DNA of 64,000 nucleotides, from NCBI GenBank assembly GCA_013140605.1, contig JABFSL010000042.1, positions 31,168 through 95,167 on the forward strand, given 5' to 3'. Under the pieces are notes generated by a model. It searched no databases, had not been told where the DNA came from, and worked only from the letters and a program-made list of their open reading frames with translations. The first letter of the stretch is position 1; each line of letters starts with the position of its first letter. Shown in pieces: positions 50,931 through 63,992 of this stretch. A program made the translations under genes and the position numbers. The DNA is from Anaerolineales bacterium. Lineage in GTDB: Bacteria > Chloroflexota > Anaerolineae > Anaerolineales > Villigracilaceae.

Positions 50931-51695
50931 TTATCCACCCGTCTGGTGCGACGCACTCGTATCATGCGGGACCCAAAGCTGGGCATCTGTTTCGACAGCC
51001 ATCGCCCCAGTTGACAGCATATCCGCCGCATCTTGTTCTGTCCACACACCGCCAGCCCCGATGATTGGAATCCCGATCATCGCCGCCGAGCGGACAATGT
51101 CCAACGAGCGCGGAAATAACGATTGACCATACAGTCTTCCCGTAATTGGTTTGTTGTCACGCATCATCGCCCCGCGCGGACTTGATATGCTGATCGCCGC
51201 CGCGCCACTTTGAATCAACTTTGGGCCTAAAGACAATATCTGTTCAGTGGGCAGCGAAAATATTAACGGCAATTCCCCGACACACATTTCTAAATTCAAT
51301 AGAATAATATCGTCTGACAATAGCGGGGCAAAGCCAAGCTCAATCGCCATGACATTCTCGATGTTTTCAAGACTTCTTACCATTTGCTGAGTTTCTTCTG
51401 GACGGTCAGCCATCAAGTTGACAATGATGGGCATATCCGCGCGGTTCCAGCGTGCGCCATGTTTTTTGAGCACGGATGACAGCCCGGAATTCGGTAGGCC
51501 CGTATGCAGCAGGAATCCGCCGGGGAATTCGATCAAAGCCGGTTGGGCAGCAGGCAGGCGCGAGCGCAGAGAGATCGGATTCGTGATGAACGCGCCGAAC
51601 GAATCCAAATCAATCCCATTGCGCGGATCGGGCGCGAATCCAAGTGATCCCGCCGCATTCATGATTGGTTTGCTAAAATAGAGGTCACGTTTCAT
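50931..51695 (-). CDS. Degenerate dihydroorotate dehydrogenase-like FMN-barrel protein
   Basis: KPIMNAAG, TGLPNSG, TGRLYG and IPIIGAGGV match family-1 DHOD; catalytic NxSCP loop absent. Confidence 0.75.
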   Translation of the reverse strand: MKRDLYFSKPIMNAAGSLGFAPDPRNGIDLDSFGAFITNPISLRSRLPAAQPALIEFPGGFLLHTGLPNSGLSSVLKKHGARWNRADMPIIVNLMADRPEETQQMVRSLENIENVMAIELGFAPLLSDDIILLNLEMCVGELPLIFSLPTEQILSLGPKLIQSGAAAISISSPRGAMMRDNKPITGRLYGQSLFPRSLDIVRSAAMIGIPIIGAGGVWTEQDAADMLSTGAMAVETDAQLWVPHDTSASHQTGG

Positions 51696-51706
51696 ATGTT
51701 GTGTTC

Positions 51707-51792
51707 ATGTCGTTGCGAGCGCTCTTTGCGAAGCAACCTCCAACGATGAGGAGATTGCTTCGTCGCCGCAAAGCGGCTTCTCGCAACGACAT
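51707..51792. repeat. REP-like element (GTCGTTGCGAG family)
   Basis: atgtcgttgcgag..gaagcaacctc..gagattgcttc..ctcgcaacgacat. Confidence 0.88.
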
Positions 51793-51808
51793 AATGATCA
51801 GGAGAATC

Positions 51809-52969
51809 ATGCAGGCATTAACTGGAATCAAAGTGTTAGATTTAAGCCGCGTGCTGGCTGGCCCTTATTGTACGATGGTTCTCGGTGACCTGGGAGCGGA
51901 TGTGATCAAAGTGGAGCCGCCCGAAGGTGACGAGACACGCGGTTGGGGGCCGCCGTTTGCAGGAGGGGAGAGTGCGTATTATTTATGCGTCAACCGCAAC
52001 AAGCGCGGCATTGTGATCAACTTGAAAACCGATGAAGGCAAAAAGATATTGCGTGACCTCGCGCTGCGGAGTGATGTGCTGGTTGAAAATTTCCGTCCGG
52101 GCACATTGAATAAATTTGGTCTGGATTATGAAACTCTGCATGAGTTGAATCCAAAGTTGATCTATTGCTCAATCACAGGTTTTGGACAAACGGGTTCCAT
52201 GAAGGATAAGCCCGGTTATGATTTTATGATCCAGGCGCTGGGCGGATTGATGAGCATTACAGGTGTGCCAGATGGCGAGCCGATGAAAACAGGCGTGGCC
52301 GTCGTGGACTTGTTCGCGGGGCAGAATGCGATCATTGCTATTCTCGCCGCGTTGCAAGCGCGCACGCTGACAGGGCACGGACAGCATCTTGATATTTCAT
52401 TGTTTGATTCGCAATTAGGCTGGCTGGCGAACGTTGCCAGTAATTATTTAATTTCTGGCAAACTGCCAAAGCGTCACGGCAACGCGCACGCGAATATCGT
52501 GCCGTATCAAAGTTTTCAGGCCAGTGACGGTTGGTTTGCGATTGCGGTGGGGAATGATAAACAGTTTGCGCGCTTATGTGAAATGCTTGGTAAACCCGAG
52601 ATTGCACTTGATGAAAAATTCGCCACGAATTCCGGGCGTGTGGAAAATCGCGCTGAGATCATCTCTTTGCTGGCTTCTATTTTCAAGAATGCTTCTGTCT
52701 CTGAGTGGTTGACAAAACTTGACGAAGCCGAAATCCCATGCGGACCGATTCAAAATTTTGAGCAGGTCTTTTCCATGCCAACTGTGCAAGAACGCGAGAT
52801 GCTTGTGAAGATGAATCATCCTACGATTGGTGAGTTGCCTTTGGTTGGTTCACCGTTGAAGATGACTGATACACCCGTGGAGTATCGTCTACATCCGCCG
52901 TTGATGGGGGAGCATACGGATGAGGTGTTGCGGGAGTTGGGGTATCTTGATGATGGAAGGGATGAATAA
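51809..52969 (+). CDS. CaiB/BaiF family (class III) CoA-transferase
   Basis: VLDLSRVLAGP, GADVIKVE, NRNKR, VENFRPG and SITGFG motifs; start at 51809 after RBS ggaga. Confidence 0.95.
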   Translation: MQALTGIKVLDLSRVLAGPYCTMVLGDLGADVIKVEPPEGDETRGWGPPFAGGESAYYLCVNRNKRGIVINLKTDEGKKILRDLALRSDVLVENFRPGTLNKFGLDYETLHELNPKLIYCSITGFGQTGSMKDKPGYDFMIQALGGLMSITGVPDGEPMKTGVAVVDLFAGQNAIIAILAALQARTLTGHGQHLDISLFDSQLGWLANVASNYLISGKLPKRHGNAHANIVPYQSFQASDGWFAIAVGNDKQFARLCEMLGKPEIALDEKFATNSGRVENRAEIISLLASIFKNASVSEWLTKLDEAEIPCGPIQNFEQVFSMPTVQEREMLVKMNHPTIGELPLVGSPLKMTDTPVEYRLHPPLMGEHTDEVLRELGYLDDGRDE

Positions 52970-53009
52970 AAATTAATGCTAAAAATAATTGGGTTTATAC
53001 TATGCCCAA
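52792..53009 (+). repeat. Direct repeat A1: CoA-transferase 3' end plus TTGGGTTTATACTATGCCCAA
   Basis: aligns with 53816-54033. Confidence 0.9.
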
Positions 53010-53815
53010 CGATTTTCTATTTCAGAGTCATTGCATTTGAAATCTTCATGTTTGCGTTGGCACACTTTCCTTCAGTTAATAAAGGATTAAAATAATGTCA
53101 GAAGAACAACAAATGAGAAAAGTTATTTTTGCAATCAATATCACGATAGACGGCTGCTGCGGACATGAATCGGTAGTCGCCGACGACGAACTGCACGAGT
53201 ACTTCACCGGGCTCCTGCGGGATTCAGGCGTTGAAATTTTCGGGCGCAACACGTATCACTTGATGTATCCGTACTGGCACGATGTCGCAGTGAATCAATC
53301 GGAAACGAAAGTGACCAACGAATTCGCGCGTACATTCGATTCCATGCAAAAGATCGTCTTTTCAACGACGTTGAAGAGCGTAGAGTGGAACAACACGACG
53401 CTCCTCCACTCAAATCTTCGAGAAGAGATTATGAAGTTAAAACAACAGCCAGGAAAAAATATTTCCATTGGTGGACTGAACATCGCAGCGCAAGTTGCAC
53501 AATGGGATCTCATCGACGAGTATCACTTTGTCGTTCACCCGATCATTGCGGGAAAAGGTCCCCGCTTGTTCGAAACGGGCAGGAACCTTACATTAAAACT
53601 TGTCGGGTCAAAAACGTTTCGTTCGGGAGTTGTTGCGTTACATTATAAGAAATAATTCTTTATGGAAACCAAAGGATTGCTGTTCGGTTCCATCGGTTTG
53701 GAAAGAGTGAGACATGTATTTCTAACGGTGGCATTATCGATCTCCTGATGAGTAGTGCTGCCTGGCGTGGTTGGTCAATTCTTCGGAGAGACGCTTCAAA
53801 CAATGCACCTGAATC
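53010..53815. mobile_element. Small acquired segment (one DHFR-like gene) bracketed by repeats A1 and A2
   Basis: flanking direct repeats; no recombinase gene inside. Confidence 0.5.
53095..53655 (+). CDS. DHFR/RibD C-terminal-like reductase
   Basis: NITIDG, FGRNTY, KIVFSTTL, DLIDEYHFVVHPIIAGKGPRLF and SGVVALHY motifs. Confidence 0.9.
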   Translation: MSEEQQMRKVIFAINITIDGCCGHESVVADDELHEYFTGLLRDSGVEIFGRNTYHLMYPYWHDVAVNQSETKVTNEFARTFDSMQKIVFSTTLKSVEWNNTTLLHSNLREEIMKLKQQPGKNISIGGLNIAAQVAQWDLIDEYHFVVHPIIAGKGPRLFETGRNLTLKLVGSKTFRSGVVALHYKK

Positions 53816-53993
53816 ACGCGAGATACTTGTGAAAATGGATCATCCCACCATTGGTGAATTGCCTTTAGTCGGCTCGCCGTTGAAGATGAGCGACACGCCC
53901 GTGGAATATCGTCTCCCGCCGCCGTTGATGGGGGAGCATACGGAGGATGTGTTGAGGGAGTTGGGATATGGGGATGATGGAAGGAAGGTGTAA
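53816..53993 (+). pseudogene. Orphan 3' fragment of the CaiB/BaiF gene (repeat A2 extends to 54033)
   Basis: EILVKMDHPTIGELPLVGSPLKMSDTPVEYRLPPPLMGEHTEDVLRELGY versus host EMLVKMNHPTIGELPLVGSPLKMTDTPVEYRLHPPLMGEHTDEVLRELGY. Confidence 0.9.
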
Positions 53994-54141
53994 AACTCCA
54001 AACTCTAAATAGTTGGGTTTATACTATGCCCAATGTTTATTTGCCCAGAACTGCTTACACAAACGGTTAAGGTGTGTGCATTATCAATAATATTGACAAA
54101 TAATTTTGTTATTTCTACTAAATAATAACGAGGAAAATAAA

Positions 54142-54747
54142 ATGCCAAAATACCAGGGACACCGAAATATAGTTCACCCAGATGGAAGTAATGATTCTTC
54201 ATGGCTAGTATATACATGCGCTAACTGTAATACAAATGTGTCTGGTGCAGTAGTGTCAGCTTTTAATAACGGTTATGGGGTTGTCAAGTGGTTGCTATGT
54301 TCTAGCTGTGGGGAAGGTTCTGTGCAATTATCCAATACCCTTATTTATCCCAGTGCTTCATTCGGGCCAATCATTGATGGATTGCCCGATGATGTAAAGA
54401 TTGCATATACAGAAGCTCGGAATTGCATATCAACTAATGCGATAACTGCTTGCGAACTTATGTGCCGCAAAATATTAATGCATGTTGCTGTTGAGAAGGG
54501 TGCCAAGGAAGGAGATACCTTTGCGGCATATCTGACACATCTTGAGGGGTTAGGATATATAACCCCTCCTATGAAAATATGGGTCGGGTTAATTCGTGAA
54601 AATGGAAATGAGGCTACGCATTTATTAGCAACACCTCCAAGAGAACGAGTAGAAAGCACTTTGTTTTTTACGGCGGAACTTCTACGCTTGGTTTATGAAA
54701 TGGAATTTTTGGCAAGGAAATATGTTCCAAAAGCACCAAACCCATAA
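54142..54747 (+). CDS. Zinc-ribbon + DUF4145 (HEPN-like) protein
   Basis: CxxC..CxxC; AYTEARNC..ACELMCRKIL; IRENGNEATH; AT-rich. Confidence 0.8.
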   Translation: MPKYQGHRNIVHPDGSNDSSWLVYTCANCNTNVSGAVVSAFNNGYGVVKWLLCSSCGEGSVQLSNTLIYPSASFGPIIDGLPDDVKIAYTEARNCISTNAITACELMCRKILMHVAVEKGAKEGDTFAAYLTHLEGLGYITPPMKIWVGLIRENGNEATHLLATPPRERVESTLFFTAELLRLVYEMEFLARKYVPKAPNP

Positions 54748-54803
54748 AATTGTATTGGGAATATTGACTGGAGCTTGAAGTAGATGACATCATCACCATC
54801 CCT

Positions 54804-54961
54804 TCATAAAAAATCTCCGAGTTCTTCAAGAACTCGGAGATTTGGTTTTAACTTATGCTGTTTCGATCAATTCCATTGCTTCCAACATTTCTTCGTTGCT
54901 GGAGAACTTGAATTCCAGGAGTCCACGTTTTTTTGGCTTCTTCCGCTCGACTACTTCGAGC
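54804..54961 (-). pseudogene. Direct repeat B1: frameshifted orphan 3' end of the FAD oxidoreductase gene plus its terminator
   Basis: aligns with 61506-61664; encodes EEAKKRGLLEFKFSSNEEMLEAMELIETA*; 1-nt deletion; hairpin aaatctccgagttct/agaactcggagattt. Confidence 0.9.
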
Positions 54962-55044
54962 CATGTTTTGCTTCTGAAGGAAACGACTGCTATCAAGCTT
55001 GAAAATGGGGGAATACAACAAAGTACCCAAATGACCGAACTACA

Positions 55045-55073
55045 TTGACAGACATAGTACTTTGATGTATATT
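55045..55073 (+). promoter_or_regulatory. Sigma70 promoter TTGACA-17-TATATT of the padR operon
   Basis: -10 box ends 6 nt before ATG 55080, consistent with a leaderless mRNA. Confidence 0.7.
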
Positions 55074-55079
55074 GTACCT

Positions 55080-55421
55080 ATGGATGAGTCAACAACCCCC
55101 AACAAAATCTCCTCAGACCTCCTTAGAGGTCATACCGATACGATTATCCTGAAGTTATTGCTAAGCGGTGACAAATATGGGTATGAAATATCGAAATTGA
55201 TCCATATAAATTCCTCCGGTGAGTATGAACTCAAGGAAGCTACCATGTACTCAAGTCTAAAGAGGCTGGAGGGTGACGGCTGTATCACTTCCTATTGGGG
55301 TGATGAGTCCCAGGGCGGCAGAAGACGGTATTACCAGATCACCGCAAGAGGTAAAAAGGCGTATTCTGAAAATAAAGATAACTGGGAATACGCAAAGCGC
55401 GTACTCGATAACTTATTGTAA
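55080..55421 (+). CDS. PadR-family transcriptional regulator
   Basis: DLLRGHTD, YGYEI, ATMYSSLKRLE and RRRYYQIT motifs. Confidence 0.93.
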   Translation: MDESTTPNKISSDLLRGHTDTIILKLLLSGDKYGYEISKLIHINSSGEYELKEATMYSSLKRLEGDGCITSYWGDESQGGRRRYYQITARGKKAYSENKDNWEYAKRVLDNLL

Positions 55422-55436
55422 AGGAGATGTGATGTT

Positions 55437-56363
55437 ATGAACGAGAAATTAAACCAATATTTGGATGGCGTTTTTGCACCCTATGATGGAGTAAAAAGCG
55501 TCGCCGAGCTAAAGGCCGATCTGCTCTCCGATTTGCAGGAGCGGTTCCGTGAACTCAAGGCCGAAGGCAAGGACGATGAAACGGCCTTTGCGATGACCGT
55601 TGACAGTATCGGCGACATCGAACAAACGGTACAGGAGGTCGCTAGTCTCTCCCGCTCATTGGAGCGGCAGGTGCTAATAAACTTCAGCGGGAGCAACCTG
55701 CCAGAGAGCGACTTTGCAGGCGTTACTGTGCATAAAGGGAAATTTGAAGGAAGTGCATTGCACGACTCCAACTTTGCAGGTGCAGCCTTGACTGGCAGCT
55801 CGTTTGTAGGCAGCGATGTGCGTGATACCAATTTTGCAAACGCAGACTTAACTGGCAGCTCGTTTAAGGCCAGCGATGTGCGCGAAGTCAATTTTGACGG
55901 GGCAAATCTGACAGATTGCACCCTGTACGCGAGTGACTTTACGGGTGCAAGCTTCAACAAAGCCATTCTTGTGCGCACCCAAATCAACGCGTCAGAGCTG
56001 AGCGGGGCAAAATTCAGCGATGTAAAACTGGTTGACGTAAAGCTGACGGCTACCGACCTTAGGAAAATAGTCTTTGAGAAGTGTACCTTCAACGGTGTGG
56101 ACTTCAAATACTGTGACCTGCAAGGGCAGTGCCTGGACGGAATGACCTTTATTGGCGTCCACTTTGACAGGGTGGAGCTGAAGGAAGTTACGTTTAAAGG
56201 CGCAACATTTAAAAATGTGTCCTTCCTTCCGTCGTTTGCCTTGACGAATAAATACTACCGTGCCATCAAAGCCATTAACTTTGACGGTGCCATGATGGAT
56301 AAGCTGACCTACGCCGCACTCAAAGGTTTGGGAGTCGATTTATCAAAAGTTACTGTTATCTAA
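55437..56363 (+). CDS. Pentapeptide-repeat protein with N-terminal helical (HAAS/permease-prefix-like) domain
   Basis: YLDGVF..ELKADLLSDLQERF..SIGDIE; many A(D/N)Lxx/SxFxx pentapeptide coils. Confidence 0.88.
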   Translation: MNEKLNQYLDGVFAPYDGVKSVAELKADLLSDLQERFRELKAEGKDDETAFAMTVDSIGDIEQTVQEVASLSRSLERQVLINFSGSNLPESDFAGVTVHKGKFEGSALHDSNFAGAALTGSSFVGSDVRDTNFANADLTGSSFKASDVREVNFDGANLTDCTLYASDFTGASFNKAILVRTQINASELSGAKFSDVKLVDVKLTATDLRKIVFEKCTFNGVDFKYCDLQGQCLDGMTFIGVHFDRVELKEVTFKGATFKNVSFLPSFALTNKYYRAIKAINFDGAMMDKLTYAALKGLGVDLSKVTVI

Positions 56364-56404
56364 GGGTTCGTAAAAATATAATTTCCCTCACCTGCCGCCG
56401 AACC

Positions 56405-56508
56405 ATGTCTTTGCGAAGGCGCACTTGCTCTTCGCCCGAAGCAATCCCCTCGCTGATACGGAGATTGCTTCGCCGCCAAAGACCAAGAGCGGCGGCTCGC
56501 AACGACAT
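56405..56508. repeat. REP-like element (GAAGCAATC..GATTGCTTC family)
   Basis: atgtctttgcga..gaagcaatc..gagattgcttc..ctcgcaacgacat. Confidence 0.85.
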
Positions 56509-56551
56509 TGCGGGAAGTTAATAATTTACAGACCCTAAGGAGAAGAAGAAT

Positions 56552-57313
56552 ATGCTAAACAATTCAATCCAAGTGAAAGGGCTGCAAAAGTCCTATAAGA
56601 AACTTCATGTTCTAAAGGGTGTCGATTTTGAGGTGGAAAAAGGCAGTATTTTCGCCCTGCTCGGCTCCAACGGTGCGGGCAAGACCACGATTGTCAAAAT
56701 CCTCACCACGCTGCTCAAACAGGATAGCGGAACTGCCAGCGTCAACGGCTTCGACGTTGCGGCAAAGCCCGACGATGTGCGGCAGTCGATCAGCTTGACC
56801 GGGCAATTCGCCGCCGTGGATGAAATTTTGACTGGTCGGGAAAATCTGATAATGATTGCCAGGCTGCGGCATCTCAAAGATCCGCATCAGGTCACGGATG
56901 ATCTGCTGAACCGCTTCGGCCTGACCGACGCTGCCGATCGCGGAGTATCCACCTATTCGGGCGGTATGCGCCGCAGACTCGACATCGCCATGAGCCTGGT
57001 AGGGAAACCGCAGATCATTTTCCTCGACGAGCCCACTAACGGGCTTGACCCCGAAGCGCGTATCGAGGTTTGGAAGACTGTCAAAGAGCTTGCTAATAAC
57101 GGCACGACGGTACTTCTGACTACACAGTATTTGGACGAAGCTGAACAGCTCGCCGACAGAATTGCCATTCTGCATGAAGGGAAAATTATCGCGAACGGCA
57201 CACTCGCGGAACTGAAGAAGCTGTTTCCGCCCGCAAAGGTGGAATATATTGAAAAACAGCCGAGCTTGGAGGAAATATTCCTCGCAATCGTCGGCAAGAA
57301 AGAGGAAAAGTAA
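56552..57313 (+). CDS. ABC exporter ATP-binding protein (DrrA-like)
   Basis: GSNGAGKT, YSGGMRRRLD and FLDEPT motifs. Confidence 0.95.
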   Translation: MLNNSIQVKGLQKSYKKLHVLKGVDFEVEKGSIFALLGSNGAGKTTIVKILTTLLKQDSGTASVNGFDVAAKPDDVRQSISLTGQFAAVDEILTGRENLIMIARLRHLKDPHQVTDDLLNRFGLTDAADRGVSTYSGGMRRRLDIAMSLVGKPQIIFLDEPTNGLDPEARIEVWKTVKELANNGTTVLLTTQYLDEAEQLADRIAILHEGKIIANGTLAELKKLFPPAKVEYIEKQPSLEEIFLAIVGKKEEK

Positions 57314-58081
57314 ATGGAAACGATAAAGAACTATTTTTTCAGCGACATGGGCGTCATGCTTGAACGTTCCATGCGCCATATTTTCCGCAGCATGGATACC
57401 ATCATCACGACCACCATCATGCCGATTGCGCTTATGCTGTTGTTCGTCTATGTGTTCGGCGGCGCCATTCAAACCGGCACGGATAACTATGTGAATTACC
57501 TGTTGCCCGGTATACTGCTGATTACCATTGCAAACAGTATAGGCTATGTGTCTTTCCGCCTGTTTACCGATGTGCAACGGGGAATATTCGAGCGTTTCCA
57601 CTCCATGCCGATTGCGCGTTCGGCCGCGCTGTGGGGGCACGTGCTGACCTCACTGGTGTCCAATACGATTTCGGTTGTCGTCATCATTCTCGTGGCGCTC
57701 GTGATGGGCTTCCGCTCGCCGGCAGGCGTATTGTCATGGCTTGCCGTGGCCGGTATACTCGCGCTGTTTTCGCTGGCCTTGACCTGGATTGCGGCGATTG
57801 CCGGGTTGTCCGCAAAATCGTTGGATGGCGCAATTGCAATTGCCTATCCGATTCACCTCCTGCCGTTAATTAGCTCGGCATTTGTGCCGACCGCGACGAT
57901 GCCTTTGGCCGTTCGCGTCTTTGCCGAAAATCAGCCTGTGACCTCGATAATAGAGACCATCCGTGCGTTGCTGTCAGGTCAGCCGGTGGGCAATGATATC
58001 TGGATTGCGCTCGCGTGGTGCGTCGGGATTATGCTCGTGGCTTATGTCTTTGCGATGAGGGTGTATAAAAAACGGGTGTAA
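57314..58081 (+). CDS. ABC-2 type permease (DrrB-like)
   Basis: YVFGGAI, YLLPGILL, ERFHSMPI, SSAFVP and NQPVT motifs. Confidence 0.93.
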   Translation: METIKNYFFSDMGVMLERSMRHIFRSMDTIITTTIMPIALMLLFVYVFGGAIQTGTDNYVNYLLPGILLITIANSIGYVSFRLFTDVQRGIFERFHSMPIARSAALWGHVLTSLVSNTISVVVIILVALVMGFRSPAGVLSWLAVAGILALFSLALTWIAAIAGLSAKSLDGAIAIAYPIHLLPLISSAFVPTATMPLAVRVFAENQPVTSIIETIRALLSGQPVGNDIWIALAWCVGIMLVAYVFAMRVYKKRV

Positions 58082-58180
58082 TGAAAACTTGAAAAAATCT
58101 TTTCATTTTCTGTGTATCCATTTTTCTCTTCGCAGATTCAAGTATCAAGTGCAACTTTGAAGACAGTCAAAAGAGGTAAC

Positions 58181-58690
58181 ATGGAATTTAGCATTCTTTA
58201 TCAGGAACTTCAAAATAGCACAGAGATGATCCGTGCTTTATTGTCGGGAGTCGCACCAGAGGCAGCACGCCTCAAACCGAGTGCGGAGTCGTGGTCAATG
58301 CTCGAGGCGGTGTGTCACTTATACGATGTAGAGCGCGAAGATTTTCGAGAACATCTCGATTTCATTCTTTACCGCCAAAATGAAAAATGGCATGAGATTG
58401 ACTCCGATCGTTTGGTAACAGAGCGAAAATATAACGAACAGAACTTCGCTGACATGCTGGAAAAATTCTTTGCCGAACGTGAAAAATCACTTGCCTGGCT
58501 CAATGAATTGCAGAATCCAGATTGGGGGAAAACTTTTACAACGGAGTACCGCACAATCAGTGCGGGAGAGATGTTCGCCTGTTGGGTTGCGCATGACAAT
58601 CTCCATATCCGCCAATTGGTGGAACTCAGGCGCATGAGGCTGGAAAATATCACAAAGCCTTACAATCTCGAATACGCAGGTGATTGGTAA
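58181..58690 (+). CDS. DinB/YfiT-family metalloprotein
   Basis: WSMLEAVCHL and WVAHDNLHIRQL motifs; start at 58181 after RBS gagg. Confidence 0.88.
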   Translation: MEFSILYQELQNSTEMIRALLSGVAPEAARLKPSAESWSMLEAVCHLYDVEREDFREHLDFILYRQNEKWHEIDSDRLVTERKYNEQNFADMLEKFFAEREKSLAWLNELQNPDWGKTFTTEYRTISAGEMFACWVAHDNLHIRQLVELRRMRLENITKPYNLEYAGDW

Positions 58691-58747
58691 CTGATAGATG
58701 CGAAATGCACAAGCGAAGGTTCTGTTCAAATGGTATAGGAGATTCTA

Positions 58748-59053
58748 ATGATTGCGAGAACTTGGCACGGCATAACTGAAGCATCGAAAGCCGATGAGTA
58801 CTTTGACTACCTAAACAAAACAGGTGTTGCTGCATATCGCGCGACACAAGGAAATCTAGGCGTGTATGTGCTACGCAGGATTGAGGGAAACAAAGCTCAT
58901 TTTCTATTGCTTACGCTCTGGGAATCCGAAGATGCCATAAAAAGGTTTGCGGGCTCAAATATAGAGAAAGCTAAGTATTACCCTGAAGATGAGCAGTTTC
59001 TTCTTGAGCTTGAGCCAACAGTTACGCATTATGAAGTCATGGTTAAGCCGTAG
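58748..59053 (+). CDS. Antibiotic biosynthesis monooxygenase (ABM)-like protein
   Basis: MIARTWHG, GNLG, TLWES..IKRFAG and YYPED motifs; RBS aggag. Confidence 0.85.
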   Translation: MIARTWHGITEASKADEYFDYLNKTGVAAYRATQGNLGVYVLRRIEGNKAHFLLLTLWESEDAIKRFAGSNIEKAKYYPEDEQFLLELEPTVTHYEVMVKP

Positions 59054-59089
59054 AAATTATCGAAACAGGAAAAGCAGCAGGGTTGTTCC

Positions 59090-59263
59090 GCGTAACACAG
59101 TTACAGCGACAGATGGGAGCCTGCGCGTTTTAAAAGCATTTTTCCTTGGACAGTCCGCCACCTTCGGCAGGCTGGCTTCGAGTTTTCTCTGCTCCCAAGC
59201 AGAGTCTACGCCCACCCAGTGCCACAGCCCGTAGGGCTAGTCCGCGAACGCAAACCGTTAGAA
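59090..59263 (+). repeat. Degenerate integron attC-like site
   Basis: GCGTAAC-ACAGT ... GCAAACC-GTTAGAA ends with internal hairpins (ctctgct/agcagag, gccc/gggc); imperfect R boxes and longer than usual. Confidence 0.55.
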
Positions 59264-59320
59264 AGCACTTGTCAGAATTATGCTGATAGTTTTTACCTCC
59301 TAAAATGGCAGAATCAGAAT

Positions 59321-59900
59321 ATGCTTAATCAAAATTTCGTAATAATTGGCACTCTAATTGGCACTACAGGTGCTTTCGCGTATGTATGGGACACAATTAA
59401 GGGGAATGTCAAACCTAATAGAGTCTCTTTTTTATTATGGTCAATCGCTCCGATGATTGCCTTTGCAGCCCAAATAAAACAAGGGGTGGGTTTAGAGTCA
59501 TTAATGACTTTTAGTACTGGTTTTCTGCCTCTTTTAACTTTTATCGCCTCCTTTACCAATAAAAATGCCGAATGGAAATTAACAAGGTTTGATTTAGCAT
59601 GTGGCTTTTTGTCTTTGGTAGGTCTGATTATTTGGCTGATAACAAAGGTTGGTAATGTGGCTATTTTCTTTAGCATCGTGGCTGATGGTCTGGCTGCACT
59701 ACCAACACTGGTTAAGGCCTATAAACATCCAGAAACGGAGGTTGCATGGCCTTGGCTGGCAACTTGCTTTGGCGTTACTTTAACATTACTAACGTTAAAG
59801 GAGTGGACATTTGCCAATAGCGGTTTTTATCATTTATATCTTTATTGTGGACTTAATGATTTTTATCTGTGTGCAATTCAAGTTAGGAAAGCGGGCTTAA
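59321..59900 (+). CDS. Hypothetical polytopic membrane protein, apparent +1 frameshift near the 3' end
   Basis: PNRVSFLLW and PTLVKAYKHPETE; removing one T at ~59823-59827 restores a last TM helix (FIIYIFIVDLMIFICVQFKLGKRA*) stopping at 59900. Confidence 0.65.
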
Positions 59901-59927
59901 AATACCCTCGCACTCGGAAGGCTATCT

Positions 59928-61397
59928 ATGACACCCAAAAACATCTTCGCTGGTCTTGAGCCTGCCGCTCTGTGGGCCTGCTTCTCGCGCATTACTGAAA
60001 TCCCCAGGCCGTCCGGACAAGAGTCCGCAATCGCTGAATGGCTTGCCAATTGGGCGAGCACTCAAGGCTTCTTGTCTCGCCGAGACACCGCCGGGAACAT
60101 CTGCGTTTACGTTCCCGCATCTATGGATTCGCTCGCCTCGCGAACGGTCGCGTTGCAGGCCCACCTGGACATGGTATGTGTCCGCTCCGACGATAGCACT
60201 TCCGATCCCGCCGCGGGCAGCATCCGGATTCTCCGCGAAGGAGACTGGATAGTAGCCCCATCTTCCACCCTCGGCGCGGATAACGGGATCGGGATAGCTG
60301 CGGCGATGTGCCTCGCTGAGAGCAAAGCCACGCCTCACGGCCCCCTTGAACTGCTGTTCACTGTCGAGGAAGAAACCACATTCAAGGGCGCAGACGAACT
60401 GGACCCCAGCCTAATTCAGGCTAATGTGATGCTGAACCTTGACCATGAGACCGCAGGCGAACTGTGTGTTGGATGCGCCGGGGCTACCTGGACTATCCTT
60501 CGCTGGCCTGCCCCCGCTCAACCATCTCCTGAGGGTTGGCTTGTCGTAGATATTGTTCTCTCGGGGCTCAGCGGTGGGCATTCAGGTAAAGACATTCACA
60601 AGAACCAGCTGAACGCCATCAAGGGAATGGTCTGGCTCGTTAGGAGGCTTGCTAAGGATGTCCCGTTCCGTCTCTGCGCGCTTGAAGGCGGCGACGCGGT
60701 CAATGCCATTCCCATTTGGGCACATGCGACCATCTCGTTTCCGCCCACCGAGGCTCATTCCTTCAAAGCAGCCCTTGCTGACGCCCGCTCTCGTCTCGCG
60801 AGCCGTTTTTCCCTCACCGACCCCGGGCTTTCCCTTTCCACGGCCAATATCGATCTGCAAGGCATCAAGTGCTGGAGCGACGAGAGCCGGGATCGGCTGC
60901 TTGACCTCCTCACTGCTGTCCCTTCAGGGGTGGTCGCAATGGAGCAACACGCTCCCGATATGGTTGAGACATCCAACAACCTGGGGATTGTCGCCTTGAG
61001 AGACGATGTTGTAGAGGTTCACTGCCTATCCCGATCTTCAGTAGCTGACGCTCAAGAAGAGACCGTAGCCTCGATAGAATCCGTCGCCCAGTTGGCCGGG
61101 GCCGAATTCGCCATTGTCCCACCAGTCATAGGTCCATGGCGTCTCCCCTCCGATTCTGCCCTATTGGCCATCGTGCAAGCCACATATCAGGATCTCTTCC
61201 GCCGAGCGCCTATCTTGGCTACGATACATGCAGGCGTCGAATGCGGAACCATCCAACAACGCATCCCAGGTCTGGACGTTCTCTCTCTGGGTCCAGAAAT
61301 CCACTATCTCCACAGGCCAGGAGAGCGCGTTAATATTCCCTCTGTGGTGGAGTTTTATGCACTGCTTTGTGAAGTTGTCCGGAGGCTAGCGGCTTAG
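59928..61397 (+). CDS. M20 aminoacyl-histidine dipeptidase (PepD-like)
   Basis: IPRPSG, LQAHLDMV, LGADNGIG, TVEEET, GGHSG, SNNLG and HAGVECG motifs; more GC-rich than its neighbour. Confidence 0.88.
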   Translation: MTPKNIFAGLEPAALWACFSRITEIPRPSGQESAIAEWLANWASTQGFLSRRDTAGNICVYVPASMDSLASRTVALQAHLDMVCVRSDDSTSDPAAGSIRILREGDWIVAPSSTLGADNGIGIAAAMCLAESKATPHGPLELLFTVEEETTFKGADELDPSLIQANVMLNLDHETAGELCVGCAGATWTILRWPAPAQPSPEGWLVVDIVLSGLSGGHSGKDIHKNQLNAIKGMVWLVRRLAKDVPFRLCALEGGDAVNAIPIWAHATISFPPTEAHSFKAALADARSRLASRFSLTDPGLSLSTANIDLQGIKCWSDESRDRLLDLLTAVPSGVVAMEQHAPDMVETSNNLGIVALRDDVVEVHCLSRSSVADAQEETVASIESVAQLAGAEFAIVPPVIGPWRLPSDSALLAIVQATYQDLFRRAPILATIHAGVECGTIQQRIPGLDVLSLGPEIHYLHRPGERVNIPSVVEFYALLCEVVRRLAA

Positions 61398-61460
61398 GAA
61401 CTCATTTCCGTTCCCTATCAGGGCTTCCTGCTCTTGACTGTTCCCCAGAACCTCGGGGCG

Positions 61461-61486
61461 GCCTAACACAGCATGGACCCGACTGG
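61461..61486 (+). repeat. Truncated attC-like left arm
   Basis: GCCTAAC (perfect RYYYAAC)-ACAGC-ATGGACCC-GACTGG, 63 nt after the pepD-like stop; no right arm. Confidence 0.55.
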
Positions 61487-61505
61487 TAGATAGTTTCATG
61501 GTTCC

Positions 61506-61664
61506 TCACAAAAAATCTCCGAGTTCTTTAAGAACTCGGAGATTTGGTTTTAGCTTACGCTGTTTCGATCAATTCCATTGCTTCAAGCATTTCTTCGTTT
61601 CTGGAGAACTTGAATTCCACAAGTCCGCGTTTCTTGGCTTCTTCAGCTTCGACCGCTTCGAGCC
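61506..61664 (-). repeat. Direct repeat B2: functional 3' end and terminator of the FAD oxidoreductase gene
   Basis: aligns with 54804-54961. Confidence 0.9.
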
Positions 61665-62868
61665 GTTTGATGTCGTCTTTCATGATGACGGGCTTGCTTA
61701 ACCCGCGCATCTTTTCGGTGACATCGTCCATGCTGGCGTTTGCGGGCTGAATGGTCTGGAGATAGTCCCAGACGGCTCTGGCGGCGTTGGTCCCATCTTT
61801 GCGCGCATAACCGACCAAACCTTCGCTGGCTTTGCGTGACCATCCGCCTACGAATACACCGTCAATTGTGGATTCATAGGAGATGCCGTCCACAGGGAAT
61901 TTCGGTTCTTTGTTTTTGATGAACTCGTTCCATTCAGTCGGCAGGCCAAAGGATTCGTCCACTTTATCGCCGATGGCGAAGATGACCGTGTCTACATCAA
62001 TGGTGCGTTTGACGCCTGTTCCCTTTGCGCTGATCTTTCCGTCTCTTTCAGTGAGGATGTTATCCTCCACTTCCAATTTGGTCAGCGCGCCGTTCTCTCC
62101 GAACATCGCAGTGGGCGAGGCGAGGAAGTCAAAATGAAACTTGGCCTCGCTGGTTTTGGGATCTGCCTTCGCGAGAGCATCCAACACTTTTTGCCGACCA
62201 GCTTCCAGGTCCTGATTGATCGCTTGCACGACAGGCTGAACCCGCGCCATTTCCTTTTCGAATTCATCCAGATCCAGATATGAGATCAGATGCTTCATTT
62301 CTTCCTTGGTGAAATTTACTTCATTTGGGCCGCGTCGTACAACTGCGATGACCTCGTCCACTTTTTGGACGTTGATCAGATGTCGTGCAATATCCACCAT
62401 CACATTGCCCGCGCCGATGATGGCACAGCGTTTTCCAAAGCGGAAATTTTTCTGGCTGTAAGGCGGCAGGTTGTTGTACGCATATACAACTTCCTTGGCG
62501 TGATACACGCCTTCAAGTTCTTCGCCGGGCAGGCCGAGCCATTTGGTTCCCTGCGCGCCCGCGCTGACAAGCACAGCATCAAAGCCAAGTTCGCGCAATT
62601 CATTGAGCGTAATATCGCCATTGTCTCCGACAACAAGGTTGCCGTAATATTCAAGGTTGGGGTTATCCATCGCGCCGCGGAACTGCTTGCGCAACCCTTC
62701 CTTCATCATATGCTTTTCAGGATAAATCCCATACTCGGCCAAACCGCCCGGTTTAATATCGCGATTAAAAAGTGCAACACGAACGCCTTGATTTGCCAAT
62801 TCGCGCGCGCCGAACAAGCCCGCCGGGCCCGCTCCTATTACTGCTACAGAATAAATTTTCTCACTCAC
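61555..62868 (-). CDS. FAD-dependent oxidoreductase, ferredoxin-NADP+/adrenodoxin reductase-like
   Basis: GAGPAG, GGLAEYGI, GAGNV and GGWSRKASEGLVG motifs; GTG 62868 after RBS ggagg. Confidence 0.85.
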   Translation of the reverse strand: MSEKIYSVAVIGAGPAGLFGARELANQGVRVALFNRDIKPGGLAEYGIYPEKHMMKEGLRKQFRGAMDNPNLEYYGNLVVGDNGDITLNELRELGFDAVLVSAGAQGTKWLGLPGEELEGVYHAKEVVYAYNNLPPYSQKNFRFGKRCAIIGAGNVMVDIARHLINVQKVDEVIAVVRRGPNEVNFTKEEMKHLISYLDLDEFEKEMARVQPVVQAINQDLEAGRQKVLDALAKADPKTSEAKFHFDFLASPTAMFGENGALTKLEVEDNILTERDGKISAKGTGVKRTIDVDTVIFAIGDKVDESFGLPTEWNEFIKNKEPKFPVDGISYESTIDGVFVGGWSRKASEGLVGYARKDGTNAARAVWDYLQTIQPANASMDDVTEKMRGLSKPVIMKDDIKRLEAVEAEEAKKRGLVEFKFSRNEEMLEAMELIETA

Positions 62869-63203
62869 TTCAACCTCCGTCAAATAAGACAAAAACTGTA
62901 CGATTATATTTGGGAATTATACAATCAACAAGCTGTAAAACTGGATTCTCATCATGCTTTTATAATTATTTCATTATCCTACAAGTCGAACAGGAATTGA
63001 AAAAGTTACCCGTGACCACATTAGACTTTCATGAGAAACCCATACCCCCCGCTTTTTCTCCGTGCTTTCGTGAAATCCGTGCACTGATGGTTTAATTATG
63101 GCAATTCCCAATGACCTTAAAAATCAAAATAGTTATCAGGTTGTAACTGTGTTAATATTGGCGTAAGTCATCATCGACCGGCGTTTTTTCAACAGGAGAC
63201 ACC

Positions 63204-63992
63204 ATGAACAATGAACCCAAAAAAGATCCCAGCGCCCGTTTGCGAAACGTATTGGGCAATCAATCTGCGCTCAGCCATCTCCCTAAAAAGAGGAATGACA
63301 CAACAGATTTTATGCCAGAGCATGAATCCAGAAAAGAGCCGTCTGTAAAAAAGGATGTGACGCATCATGCTGCGCCCGAGCCTGATCCTGTTACGAAGAA
63401 ACGTAGGTTTAACTTTTGGCCCGCCATCTGGACGATTGCGAGCGTTCTTTCTCTTACCATCAATTTGGTTCTGGCCATTCTACTATTTTCGACCTGGATG
63501 AATCTCCCATCCCTGAATGTTAACGGCGCCACAGATGTTGTCACCGATATTGGTACCGGGGTGCTCGGAGGTTTATATACAAATTTTGAAAAAATGGATC
63601 GCGCCCATATTACGCGCACAATTCCTGTTCAAACCACGATCCCGGTCAAATTTGATCTGGCACTTAACCAACAAACGAACGTGGTTTTGAGTCAGGACGT
63701 GACGATCAGTAATGCGCTTGTCACTGTAAACACTGGCGGCTTGAATATATCAAGAGCGTTGGCAACCATTGTTCTGCCCCAGGGAACGACCCTGCCTGTT
63801 GTGTTAAATTTGACCGTCCCTGTGGATACCACTGTGCCGGTCTCGTTGAATGTGGATGTTGATATTCCTTTAAATGAAACACAGCTGCATGATCCGTTCG
63901 TGGGCTTGCGTCAGGTGGTTGAACCATACTATTGCATGATCAATCCCGAAGCTCTTAATCTGGATGGACAGAAAGTTTGCGTGAATAAATAA
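63204..63992 (+). CDS. Hypothetical single-pass membrane protein with a beta-rich external domain
   Basis: RBS aggag; charged N-terminus, one TM helix, V/P/T-rich C-terminus with 2 Cys. Confidence 0.7.
   Translation: MNNEPKKDPSARLRNVLGNQSALSHLPKKRNDTTDFMPEHESRKEPSVKKDVTHHAAPEPDPVTKKRRFNFWPAIWTIASVLSLTINLVLAILLFSTWMNLPSLNVNGATDVVTDIGTGVLGGLYTNFEKMDRAHITRTIPVQTTIPVKFDLALNQQTNVVLSQDVTISNALVTVNTGGLNISRALATIVLPQGTTLPVVLNLTVPVDTTVPVSLNVDVDIPLNETQLHDPFVGLRQVVEPYYCMINPEALNLDGQKVCVNK

Follow-up and report, generated by a model that had tools for sequence, protein, structure and literature searches.

Diverged copies of two gene ends mark a probable stratified recombination hotspot in an Anaerolineales genome

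How can two conserved, neighbouring genes each come to have a second, diverged copy of their own 3' end at a distance from the gene, with unrelated genes in between and no integrase among them? This question is raised by a locus in a 64,000-nt stretch of Anaerolineales DNA (the window), which stems from contig C82 of a metagenome-assembled genome (MAG) of 132 contigs (3.9 Mb, 96% complete). Two intact genes are convergent here: the gene of a CaiB-like family III CoA-transferase (CoA_transf_3 according to Pfam and NCBIfam; 51701..52969, plus strand) and the gene of a FAD/NAD(P) oxidoreductase (FADred; Pyr_redox_2, GltD-like, according to the same databases; 61555..62892, minus strand). The window is layered between them: CaiB is followed by a RibD_C gene, by a central piece consisting of a CaiB fragment, a DUF4145 gene and a FADred fragment, by a series of genes from PadR to M20, and finally by FADred. 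We propose that this interval is probably a stratified recombination hotspot, grown by homology-anchored capture of relatives' DNA with one homologous and one illegitimate junction. In the following, G000 denotes the present genome, the other G numbers are genomes of relatives, and L numbers are loci from metagenomes or genomes (L043 is G011, L044 is G010, and L037 is G001).

A reading made from the window alone (the sequence-only reading) had claimed copies of both 3' ends displaced by about 1.0 kb and 6.7 kb, and this was confirmed with spacings of 1024 and 6702 nt. The first pair, D1, was delimited by the repeat finder at 52792-53014 and 53816-54038 (223 nt, 83% identity) and comprises the last ~180 nt of the CaiB-family CoA-transferase gene plus ~45 nt downstream. 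Its in-gene copy D1a (52792..53014, plus strand) consists of 58 codons, the stop codon and the following ~45 nt; the displaced copy D1b (53816..54038, plus strand) extends from residue 363 to the stop and further into a 21-nt motif, TTGGGTTTATACTATGCCCAA. The motif belongs to the 3' flank of CaiB (52990..53010, plus strand), is identical in both D1 copies and was found at this locus alone. For the second pair, D2, the repeat finder reported 54804-54933 and 61506-61635 (130 nt, 92% identity), and an alignment extends it to ~160 nt at 90% identity; it contains the last ~110 nt of FADred and a terminator hairpin. The displaced copy D2a (54804..54965, minus strand) holds the last ~36 codons, the stop codon and the hairpin at 54811-54843, and the in-gene copy D2b (61506..61667, minus strand) has its hairpin at 61513-61545. 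Within-genome BLAST gave E-values of 4e-60 and 5e-55, and each of the two sequences exists in exactly two copies in the 3.9-Mb genome.

The D1 copies differ by 17.5 synonymous and 11.5 non-synonymous changes, which corresponds to a ratio of non-synonymous to synonymous divergence (dN/dS) of 0.13 at a dS of 0.69; for the D2 copies, dN/dS is 0.11-0.15. Over the same codons, orthologues from different species give matching ratios. At the protein level, the copies are 84-92% identical, and the fragments encode the conserved C-termini of the CoA-transferase and the flavoprotein. Since dN/dS is 0.11-0.15 while dS between paired copies amounts to 0.45-0.8, the copies appear to have diverged as functional genes in separate lineages, in agreement with the earlier claim that the differences are mostly silent and that both versions were working alleles. 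Judged by these substitutions, each pair is the meeting of two working alleles from separate lineages and not a duplication made in place. An in-place or target-site duplication was rejected on account of this dS, accumulated under purifying selection, and because D1b comes nearer to another species than the host gene does.

The foreign origin of one copy can be traced. D1b shares 94.7% identity with species G016, whereas the flanking genes of G000 share 82-86% and D1a 82-83% with the same species; by this comparison, D1b is an import from another lineage. Its identity to the in-gene ends of L068 and L059 is 92%. D1a, on the other hand, is 82-87% identical to the relatives, which is the same level as that of the CaiB gene body, whose best match among the relatives compared has 88.5% identity. 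Similarly, D2b follows the body of FADred, G003 being nearest in both cases (91% for D2b), and D2a is a more distant allele. In G000, the in-gene copies thus look native and the displaced copies foreign, which contradicts the notion that an arriving element simply restored the 3' end of its target. The site of the homologous crossover could not be read from a mosaic breakpoint within CaiB: sliding-window identity to 14 relatives gave no clear step and only a variable region at 52556-52700.

The D2 hairpins are formed by a 33-nt perfect palindrome, AAATCTCCGAGTTCTTnAAGAACTCGGAGATTT, preceded by an A-run and followed by a T-run. It occurs at more than 10 places in the genome (contigs C18, C19, C39, C57, C83, C87, C102, C115, C118, C119 and C128) and, in several species, on the downstream side of FADred; the truncated end of the FADred fragment in G001 is directly adjoined by a copy. 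The palindrome looks like a conserved bidirectional terminator or a family resembling repetitive extragenic palindromic (REP) elements.

The gene order around the interval is stable and its content is not. A DHO_dh family gene (DHOdh, assigned by Pfam; 50931..51695, minus strand), which is syntenic in all relatives, forms the left flank, and a gene of unknown family (unk262; 63204..63992, plus strand), likewise syntenic in relatives, forms the right one; the order DHOdh-CaiB-interval-FADred-unk262 is kept in 14 genomes of the same genus and at 80 metagenome loci. The interval is empty in G020 and L076 (14-21 bp) and in many distant relatives (46-120 bp), and in several species it measures ~1.2 kb and contains genes of a membrane protein and an S-adenosylmethionine (SAM) methyltransferase. 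Cargo in other genomes includes GNAT, APH(6), lipoprotein, LuxR, TIR, ParA-TIR, STAND and subtilase/PatG genes, extracytoplasmic function (ECF) sigma/anti-sigma pairs and a sugar operon; the largest interval, in G001, exceeds 12 kb. In the closest species, G003, none of the G000 cargo is present within the 3.2 kb downstream of FADred and the 0.24 kb downstream of CaiB that are covered by its contigs. Relatives from activated sludge show further layouts: CaiB, motif and RibD_C; the same site without RibD_C; CaiB fused directly to the PadR module; and RibD_C joined to a CaiB fragment at another point. DUF4145 is nearly absent from these relatives. Empty sites in some relatives and quite different cargo in others support the hotspot that had been suggested from the window alone.

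In two genomes, the flanking gene itself may have been damaged at the hotspot. The CaiB match of G011 (L043) ends at residue 307, where the adjoining open reading frame (ORF) is APH-like by eye, and in G010 (L044) CaiB aligns as two overlapping pieces, suggesting a frameshift. An ECF sigma and anti-sigma pair (191 and 211 aa) was detected by Pfam in L075 (12129-13326), beyond a FADred fragment, and by eye in G001 (L037:3370-4567), directly after CaiB; this module therefore sits in different strata.

Displaced 3' fragments were found in G000 and three further lineages (four in total) with different breakpoints, and they represent at least five or six independent origins at this locus, involving both flanks. 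In G001, the FADred fragment comprises 281 nt from residue 354 onwards and is 92.9% identical to the intact gene, which is located on another contig; the 20 nucleotide differences cause only 6 residue differences, and both copies are equally far from the relatives. FADred fragments start at residue ~411 in G000 (according to the protein match; nucleotide similarity extends to ~409), 354 in G001 and 359 in L075. The CaiB fragments start at residue 363 (G000 and fragment f1 of L068), ~383 (f3), ~389 (L059, which carries one such fragment) and ~395 (f2). L068 and L075, which are one population in two samples, carry several fragments in a single series: CaiB, RibD_C, f1, four genes, f2, two genes, f3, two genes and a FADred fragment. 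Cargo is attached at differing points within ~50 nt past the 21-nt motif. Because the breakpoints and join points differ between independent events instead of converging on a fixed crossover core, an illegitimate junction is favoured over a fixed att site.

The layout of L068/L075 is nested as in G000, the central piece running from a CaiB end through cargo to a FADred end. In G000, this mini-locus contains DUF4145 (54106..54747, plus strand) as its only cargo between D1b and D2a. It is enclosed by stratum 1 on the CaiB side (53015..53815, plus strand), i.e. the RibD_C gene of the dihydrofolate reductase (DHFR) family (53095-53655, plus strand, 186 aa) plus a 160-nt spacer, and by stratum 2 on the FADred side (54966..61505), in which all genes from PadR to M20 are co-oriented on the plus strand. 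In place of the two separate islands of the earlier description, nested strata around D1b-DUF4145-D2a fit better.

One layer has evidently been shared between species. From ~52984 to ~53825, the RibD_C block is ~97% identical between G000 and L068/L075, in contrast to ~77-81% for its flanks. Both ends of the block fall in CaiB-homologous sequence, the left one a few bases upstream of the motif. Past the block the fragments diverge: that of G000 leads to DUF4145, that of L068 to a membrane protein gene; as they continue differently on the far side, the right-hand crossover is placed inside the fragment. In the last part of the in-gene CaiB end of L068, 72/75 positions match D1b, which hints at an exchange between copies in L068. 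A reciprocal mosaic in L068 was considered as proof of a single Campbell-type crossover and dropped: the values of 72/75 versus 59/75 in the 3' part are suggestive, and nothing can be learned from the 5' part.

At the left edge of the RibD_C block (~53022), G000 lacks 34 nt that are present in L068 (11224-11257) between two CAGAG pentamers, a pattern resembling a small deletion with short direct repeats at its borders. The RibD_C protein has 2,722 homologues at E<=1e-40. Homologues with 85-93% identity are very common in metagenomes, one being found in a Bacteroidota MAG, and pieces with 95-99% nucleotide identity occur in groundwater and sludge metagenomes; one 90% homologue is located in the same hotspot, in the middle of the interval. 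For an accessory protein of 186 residues, such conservation or mobility is unusually high.

A scan of all cargo ORFs of G000 with Pfam and NCBIfam identified no recombinase, as the sequence-only reading had stated for integrases; the four matches to PF00589 (tyrosine recombinases) in this genome are all on contigs other than that of the locus, and neither an integrase nor a transposase was seen on the latter. Pfam likewise detected no integrase or transposase in most of the larger cargo ORFs of L068/L075, L060, L135, L034, L061, L067 and L073. The cargo of G001, read by eye only, contains no integrase and one ORF resembling a truncated transposase.

Similar scars exist elsewhere in G000. When the genome was compared with itself, six additional two-copy sites emerged: at each, a long gene has its final 80-155 nt repeated on the same strand, 0.25-3.5 kb further downstream and with 78-90% identity (C20:5307-6213, C25:6203-9798, C51:41441-42370, C85:30333-31285, C86:596-943 and C99:176191-179852). 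If the two pairs of the locus are included, the fragment lies downstream of the intact gene and on the same strand in 8/8 cases. The cargo at the six sites includes a nucleotidyltransferase-like gene, a membrane protein, hydrolases, an HD-GYP sensor and a small gene pair resembling DUF4160/DUF2442 by eye. The C20 scar, at an E2 acyltransferase gene, has a single cargo gene of 183 aa and varies among members of the genus; in G007, this cargo is present there together with a fragment.

How could these layers have been laid down? We favour capture with one anchor on the strength of variable breakpoints, long and diverged repeats, the lack of a recombinase, a symmetrical action on both flanks, and crossovers located within the repeats. 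DNA of a relative would enter with a piece of one flanking gene and whatever followed this gene in the donor. The gene piece would pair with the resident gene, and RecA-type homologous recombination would form one junction, whereas the second one would arise without homology. It may result from homology-facilitated illegitimate recombination (HFIR), which would join a linear fragment; alternatively, the fragment might circularise first and be inserted by a single Campbell-type crossover, for which the same layout is expected. In either case, the host gene would remain intact, and a diverged second copy of its 3' end would stay in the interval. Repeated captures from both flanks would drive older layers inward, and an established layer could spread between species by ordinary homologous recombination with the gene copies as arms, so that no element-encoded integrase would be needed. 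The recombination pathway, the order of events and the route of DNA entry are what we infer from the observed arrangement. At the homologous boundaries, alleles of different lineages meet, as is evident from the similarity of D1b to G016 and from the ends of the RibD_C block; the other boundaries are abrupt and differ between events. The suggestion of a hotspot that captures relatives' DNA by a homologous anchor and an illegitimate or site-specific junction is thus supported, and the variable breakpoints favour its illegitimate version.

Several observations weigh against one-anchor capture. Simple HFIR is expected to leave the donor copy in the gene and to displace the resident one, whereas here the in-gene copy is native and the displaced one foreign; this polarity fits a distal Campbell crossover (or an earlier import) better than textbook HFIR, and extra assumptions are needed. 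The 21-nt motif, without a single difference between the D1 copies, could serve as a core for recombination. The G000 genome lacks Ku, and canonical end-joining is therefore no explanation for circularisation or for illegitimate joins. G000 has a ComEC homologue, which is weak evidence for competence; such homologues are common in non-competent bacteria. The signal of a reciprocal mosaic in L068 is weak, with small counts. As a control for the genome-wide scars, partial duplicates of the 5'-end type were counted: there are 12 of them, mostly from multi-copy paralogue families, versus 8 of the 3' type, and we do not claim an enrichment of the latter. Finally, laboratory HFIR is a rare event (PMC5361080), in contrast to the frequent scars seen here.

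A bolder version of capture would make it a general, recombinase-free route of gene gain in the genus, in which small cassettes carry a 3'-end piece of a conserved host gene as their homology arm; we regard this as possible, if on balance doubtful. Circles would loop out by recombination between gene-end copies and re-insert by a single crossover in any relative that possesses the target gene, with host RecA as the only requirement; in this way the cassettes would act as mobile elements. At many loci, earlier acquisitions could then be read from the stratigraphy left behind.

It is rather unlikely that the strata are instead remnants of site-specific integrative elements at the 3' ends of CaiB and FADred, similar to tycheposons, cis-mobilisable elements (CIME) or satellites, whose attachment site attP carries the 3' end of the target and whose integrase was lost or acts in trans from another place in the genome; the sequence-only reading had named decayed elements mobilised in trans as its alternative. 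The sequence of gene 3' end, cargo and partial copy is the classic layout of such elements, stacked as in Prochlorococcus islands (10.1101/2020.12.28.424599), and the four tyrosine recombinases encoded elsewhere in G000 could be a source of trans-mobilisation. However, no integrase, excisionase or recognisable remnant was present in the ~15 cargo sets examined. The locus-specific motif TTGGGTTTATACTATGCCCAA, identical amid an 83% repeat, might be taken for a core; it is, however, native CaiB 3' flank and is also present without cargo behind it (joint of 53003 to 54052). The junctions of the RibD_C module are the same in two species, which speaks for an element, but the 5' breakpoints of the fragments are unlike in every independent event, and the cargo joins scatter past the motif as described above. 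Moreover, no known element resembles a module of 0.8-1 kb that contains just one gene of housekeeping type, and the repeats are 160-280 nt of diverged sequence and not short identical cores.

We consider it still more improbable that no special capture took place at all, i.e. that entire intervals are exchanged between species through double homologous recombination in the genes on either side and the fragments are hitch-hiking scars of accidents such as a partial tandem duplication or the deletion of a second full gene copy. Most cargo-bearing relatives have no fragment at all, as this explanation would predict, and the same has been argued for T6SS (type VI secretion system) loci (PMC5361080). 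Accessory families (DUF4386, zinc-dependent alcohol dehydrogenase, RibD_C, methyltransferase) recur in the hotspot in differing orders, and the differing positions of the ECF sigma/anti-sigma modules in G001 and L075 also agree with exchange by flanking homology. Accidents, though, hardly account for at least five or six independent fragment origins on both flanks of one locus or for the same polarity in all eight genome-wide cases. The paired copies are different alleles (dS 0.45-0.8), which excludes duplication in place, and deletion of a full xenologous gene would have to leave just the last 30-90 codons each time.

An assembly artefact was examined with Logan contigs, assembled per run, of two drinking-water samples, the drinking-water metagenomes being the public runs that match the window best. 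These contigs cover 51500-54886, 53372-56455 and 61348-62622 with zero differences and an even depth of ~13 and ~10; the only break point is a 30-nt exact repeat within D2 in one run, which the other run crosses. Although the MAG is fragmented into its 132 contigs and the assemblies of G001, G003 and G004 break within the CaiB-FADred interval, a chimeric contig fusing two strains or species is extremely improbable, because every junction is spanned by these contigs from two samples, the junctions sit at non-homologous points where graph chimeras do not form, and the same architecture recurs in the independent assemblies of other studies (L068, L075, L059, G001). Joints that would skip parts of the interval, and so indicate excised or alternative forms, did not occur at 97% likeness in the contigs of the source runs, a form of assembly that drops rare variants.

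The closest parallel to the capture proposed here is found in the C-terminal or sequential displacement arrays of Rhs, CDI (contact-dependent growth inhibition) and T6SS effector-immunity loci (Jackson 2009 and Poole 2011, both after Kirchberger 2017, PMC5361080), and the rows of orphaned 3' regions that T6SS and Rhs loci contain have been attributed, as a proposal, to HFIR (PMC5361080). In both settings, orphan 3' fragments stand in co-oriented strings on the 3' side of one intact gene, newer layers adjoin this gene, no integrase is involved, and HFIR followed by homologous spread has been suggested. The present data show this architecture with three CaiB fragments in L068/L075, one fragment per flank in G000 and downstream, co-oriented fragments in all genome-wide cases. 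In the arrays, however, the displaced ends are polymorphic toxin domains with immunity genes, and selection acts on the variable tip, whereas here they are conserved C-termini of housekeeping enzymes combined with unrelated accessory cargo; no toxin domains take their place, and accretion proceeds from both sides of a convergent pair.

HFIR is defined in laboratory crosses and is usually reported with a deletion of recipient DNA. The likeness consists in one homologous anchor and one non-homologous junction placing foreign DNA beside a conserved gene, as in the transformable bacteria for which HFIR was described (de Vries & Wackernagel 2002; Prudhomme 2002; Meier & Wackernagel 2003; as cited in PMC5361080 and PMC2884548). 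In contrast to those studies, it is deduced here from natural genomes, with diverged duplications of 100-280 nt that recur at one site, and the native/foreign polarity can be accommodated only with the extra assumptions mentioned. Accretion of tycheposons and CIME (10.1101/2020.12.28.424599) resembles our locus in that a full and a partial target 3' end flank the cargo and successive arrivals stack up, driving earlier ones inward. Those elements, however, possess tyrosine recombinases or their remnants and a fixed core; here none were found, and the breakpoints vary.

The 'minimal mobile elements' of Neisseria are a case of gene turnover between conserved genes. Hotspots of horizontal gene transfer (HGT) bounded by core genes have been described by Oliveira, Touchon & Rocha 2017 (PMC5635113). 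Both share with our interval the rapid turnover of genes in a short space between conserved genes, and many HGT hotspots are free of mobile-element genes and thought to exchange their content via homologous recombination in the flanks, as here. To our knowledge, descriptions of these systems do not include serial, diverged duplicates of flanking 3' ends as stratigraphic markers.

What is new is that the displacement architecture exists at housekeeping genes, beyond toxin loci, and on both sides of a convergent pair. Most chromosomal transfer hotspots lack mobile-element genes, and the entry of DNA without two-sided homology has been argued mainly from laboratory crosses. In an uncultured lineage, several independent captures have left junction scars that survive at the locus and in its relatives; these scars record the order of the layers, and D1b names the lineage of its allele. 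One-anchor capture thereby becomes testable on natural data, through the spectrum of breakpoints, the identity of donors and the rates of capture. Should the six additional scars have arisen in the same way, capture may be one of the main ways in which Anaerolineales of water and sludge systems gain genes. The cargo of the hotspot includes genes of resistance type (APH(6), a Qnr-like pentapeptide protein, a DHFR-family protein) and of defence type (TIR, STAND).

As regards the annotation of the flanking CaiB-like gene, the top NCBIfam match is succinate-glutarate CoA-transferase with 450 bits, well below the model cut-off of 750. All relatives align only from residue ~33, i.e. ~32 codons past the listed start, and by this alignment the true start is probably near 51797. 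Upstream of it, the stretch 51720-51780 acts as repeat sequence in read layouts.

The genes of stratum 2, all on the plus strand, encode PadR (55062-55421; with a promoter-like site at 55045-55073), a pentapeptide protein (55437-56363), an ABC ATPase (56552-57313), an ABC-2 permease (57314-58081), DinB_2 (58112-58690), ABM (58748-59053), a membrane protein (59219-59959) and an M20 beta-Ala-His dipeptidase (59928-61397). Two intergenic segments, 56364-56551 and 59054-59218, are predicted to fold with free energies (dG) of -70 and -49 kcal/mol into hairpins of the GAAGCAATC...GATTGCTTC type. We also considered whether the cargo represents an integron or a cluster of attC sites lacking an integrase (CALIN). 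No paired R-box palindromes were seen at the gene boundaries and no Rfam matches were obtained (the search being made without an attC covariance model), and the integron reading was provisionally set aside, the structured segments being multi-copy genomic repeats of another kind. Contig depth in these segments is 3-5x that of their neighbours, and many metagenome contigs end or switch there, which points to repeats that form a multi-copy family and are spread widely among related organisms. Some joints connect position 56449 with ~51749, upstream of CaiB. The M20 gene has a GC content of 58-60%, while the membrane-protein gene that overlaps it on the upstream side has ~39-41% and the region ~48%; this composition suggests a separate foreign origin of the M20 gene within stratum 2.

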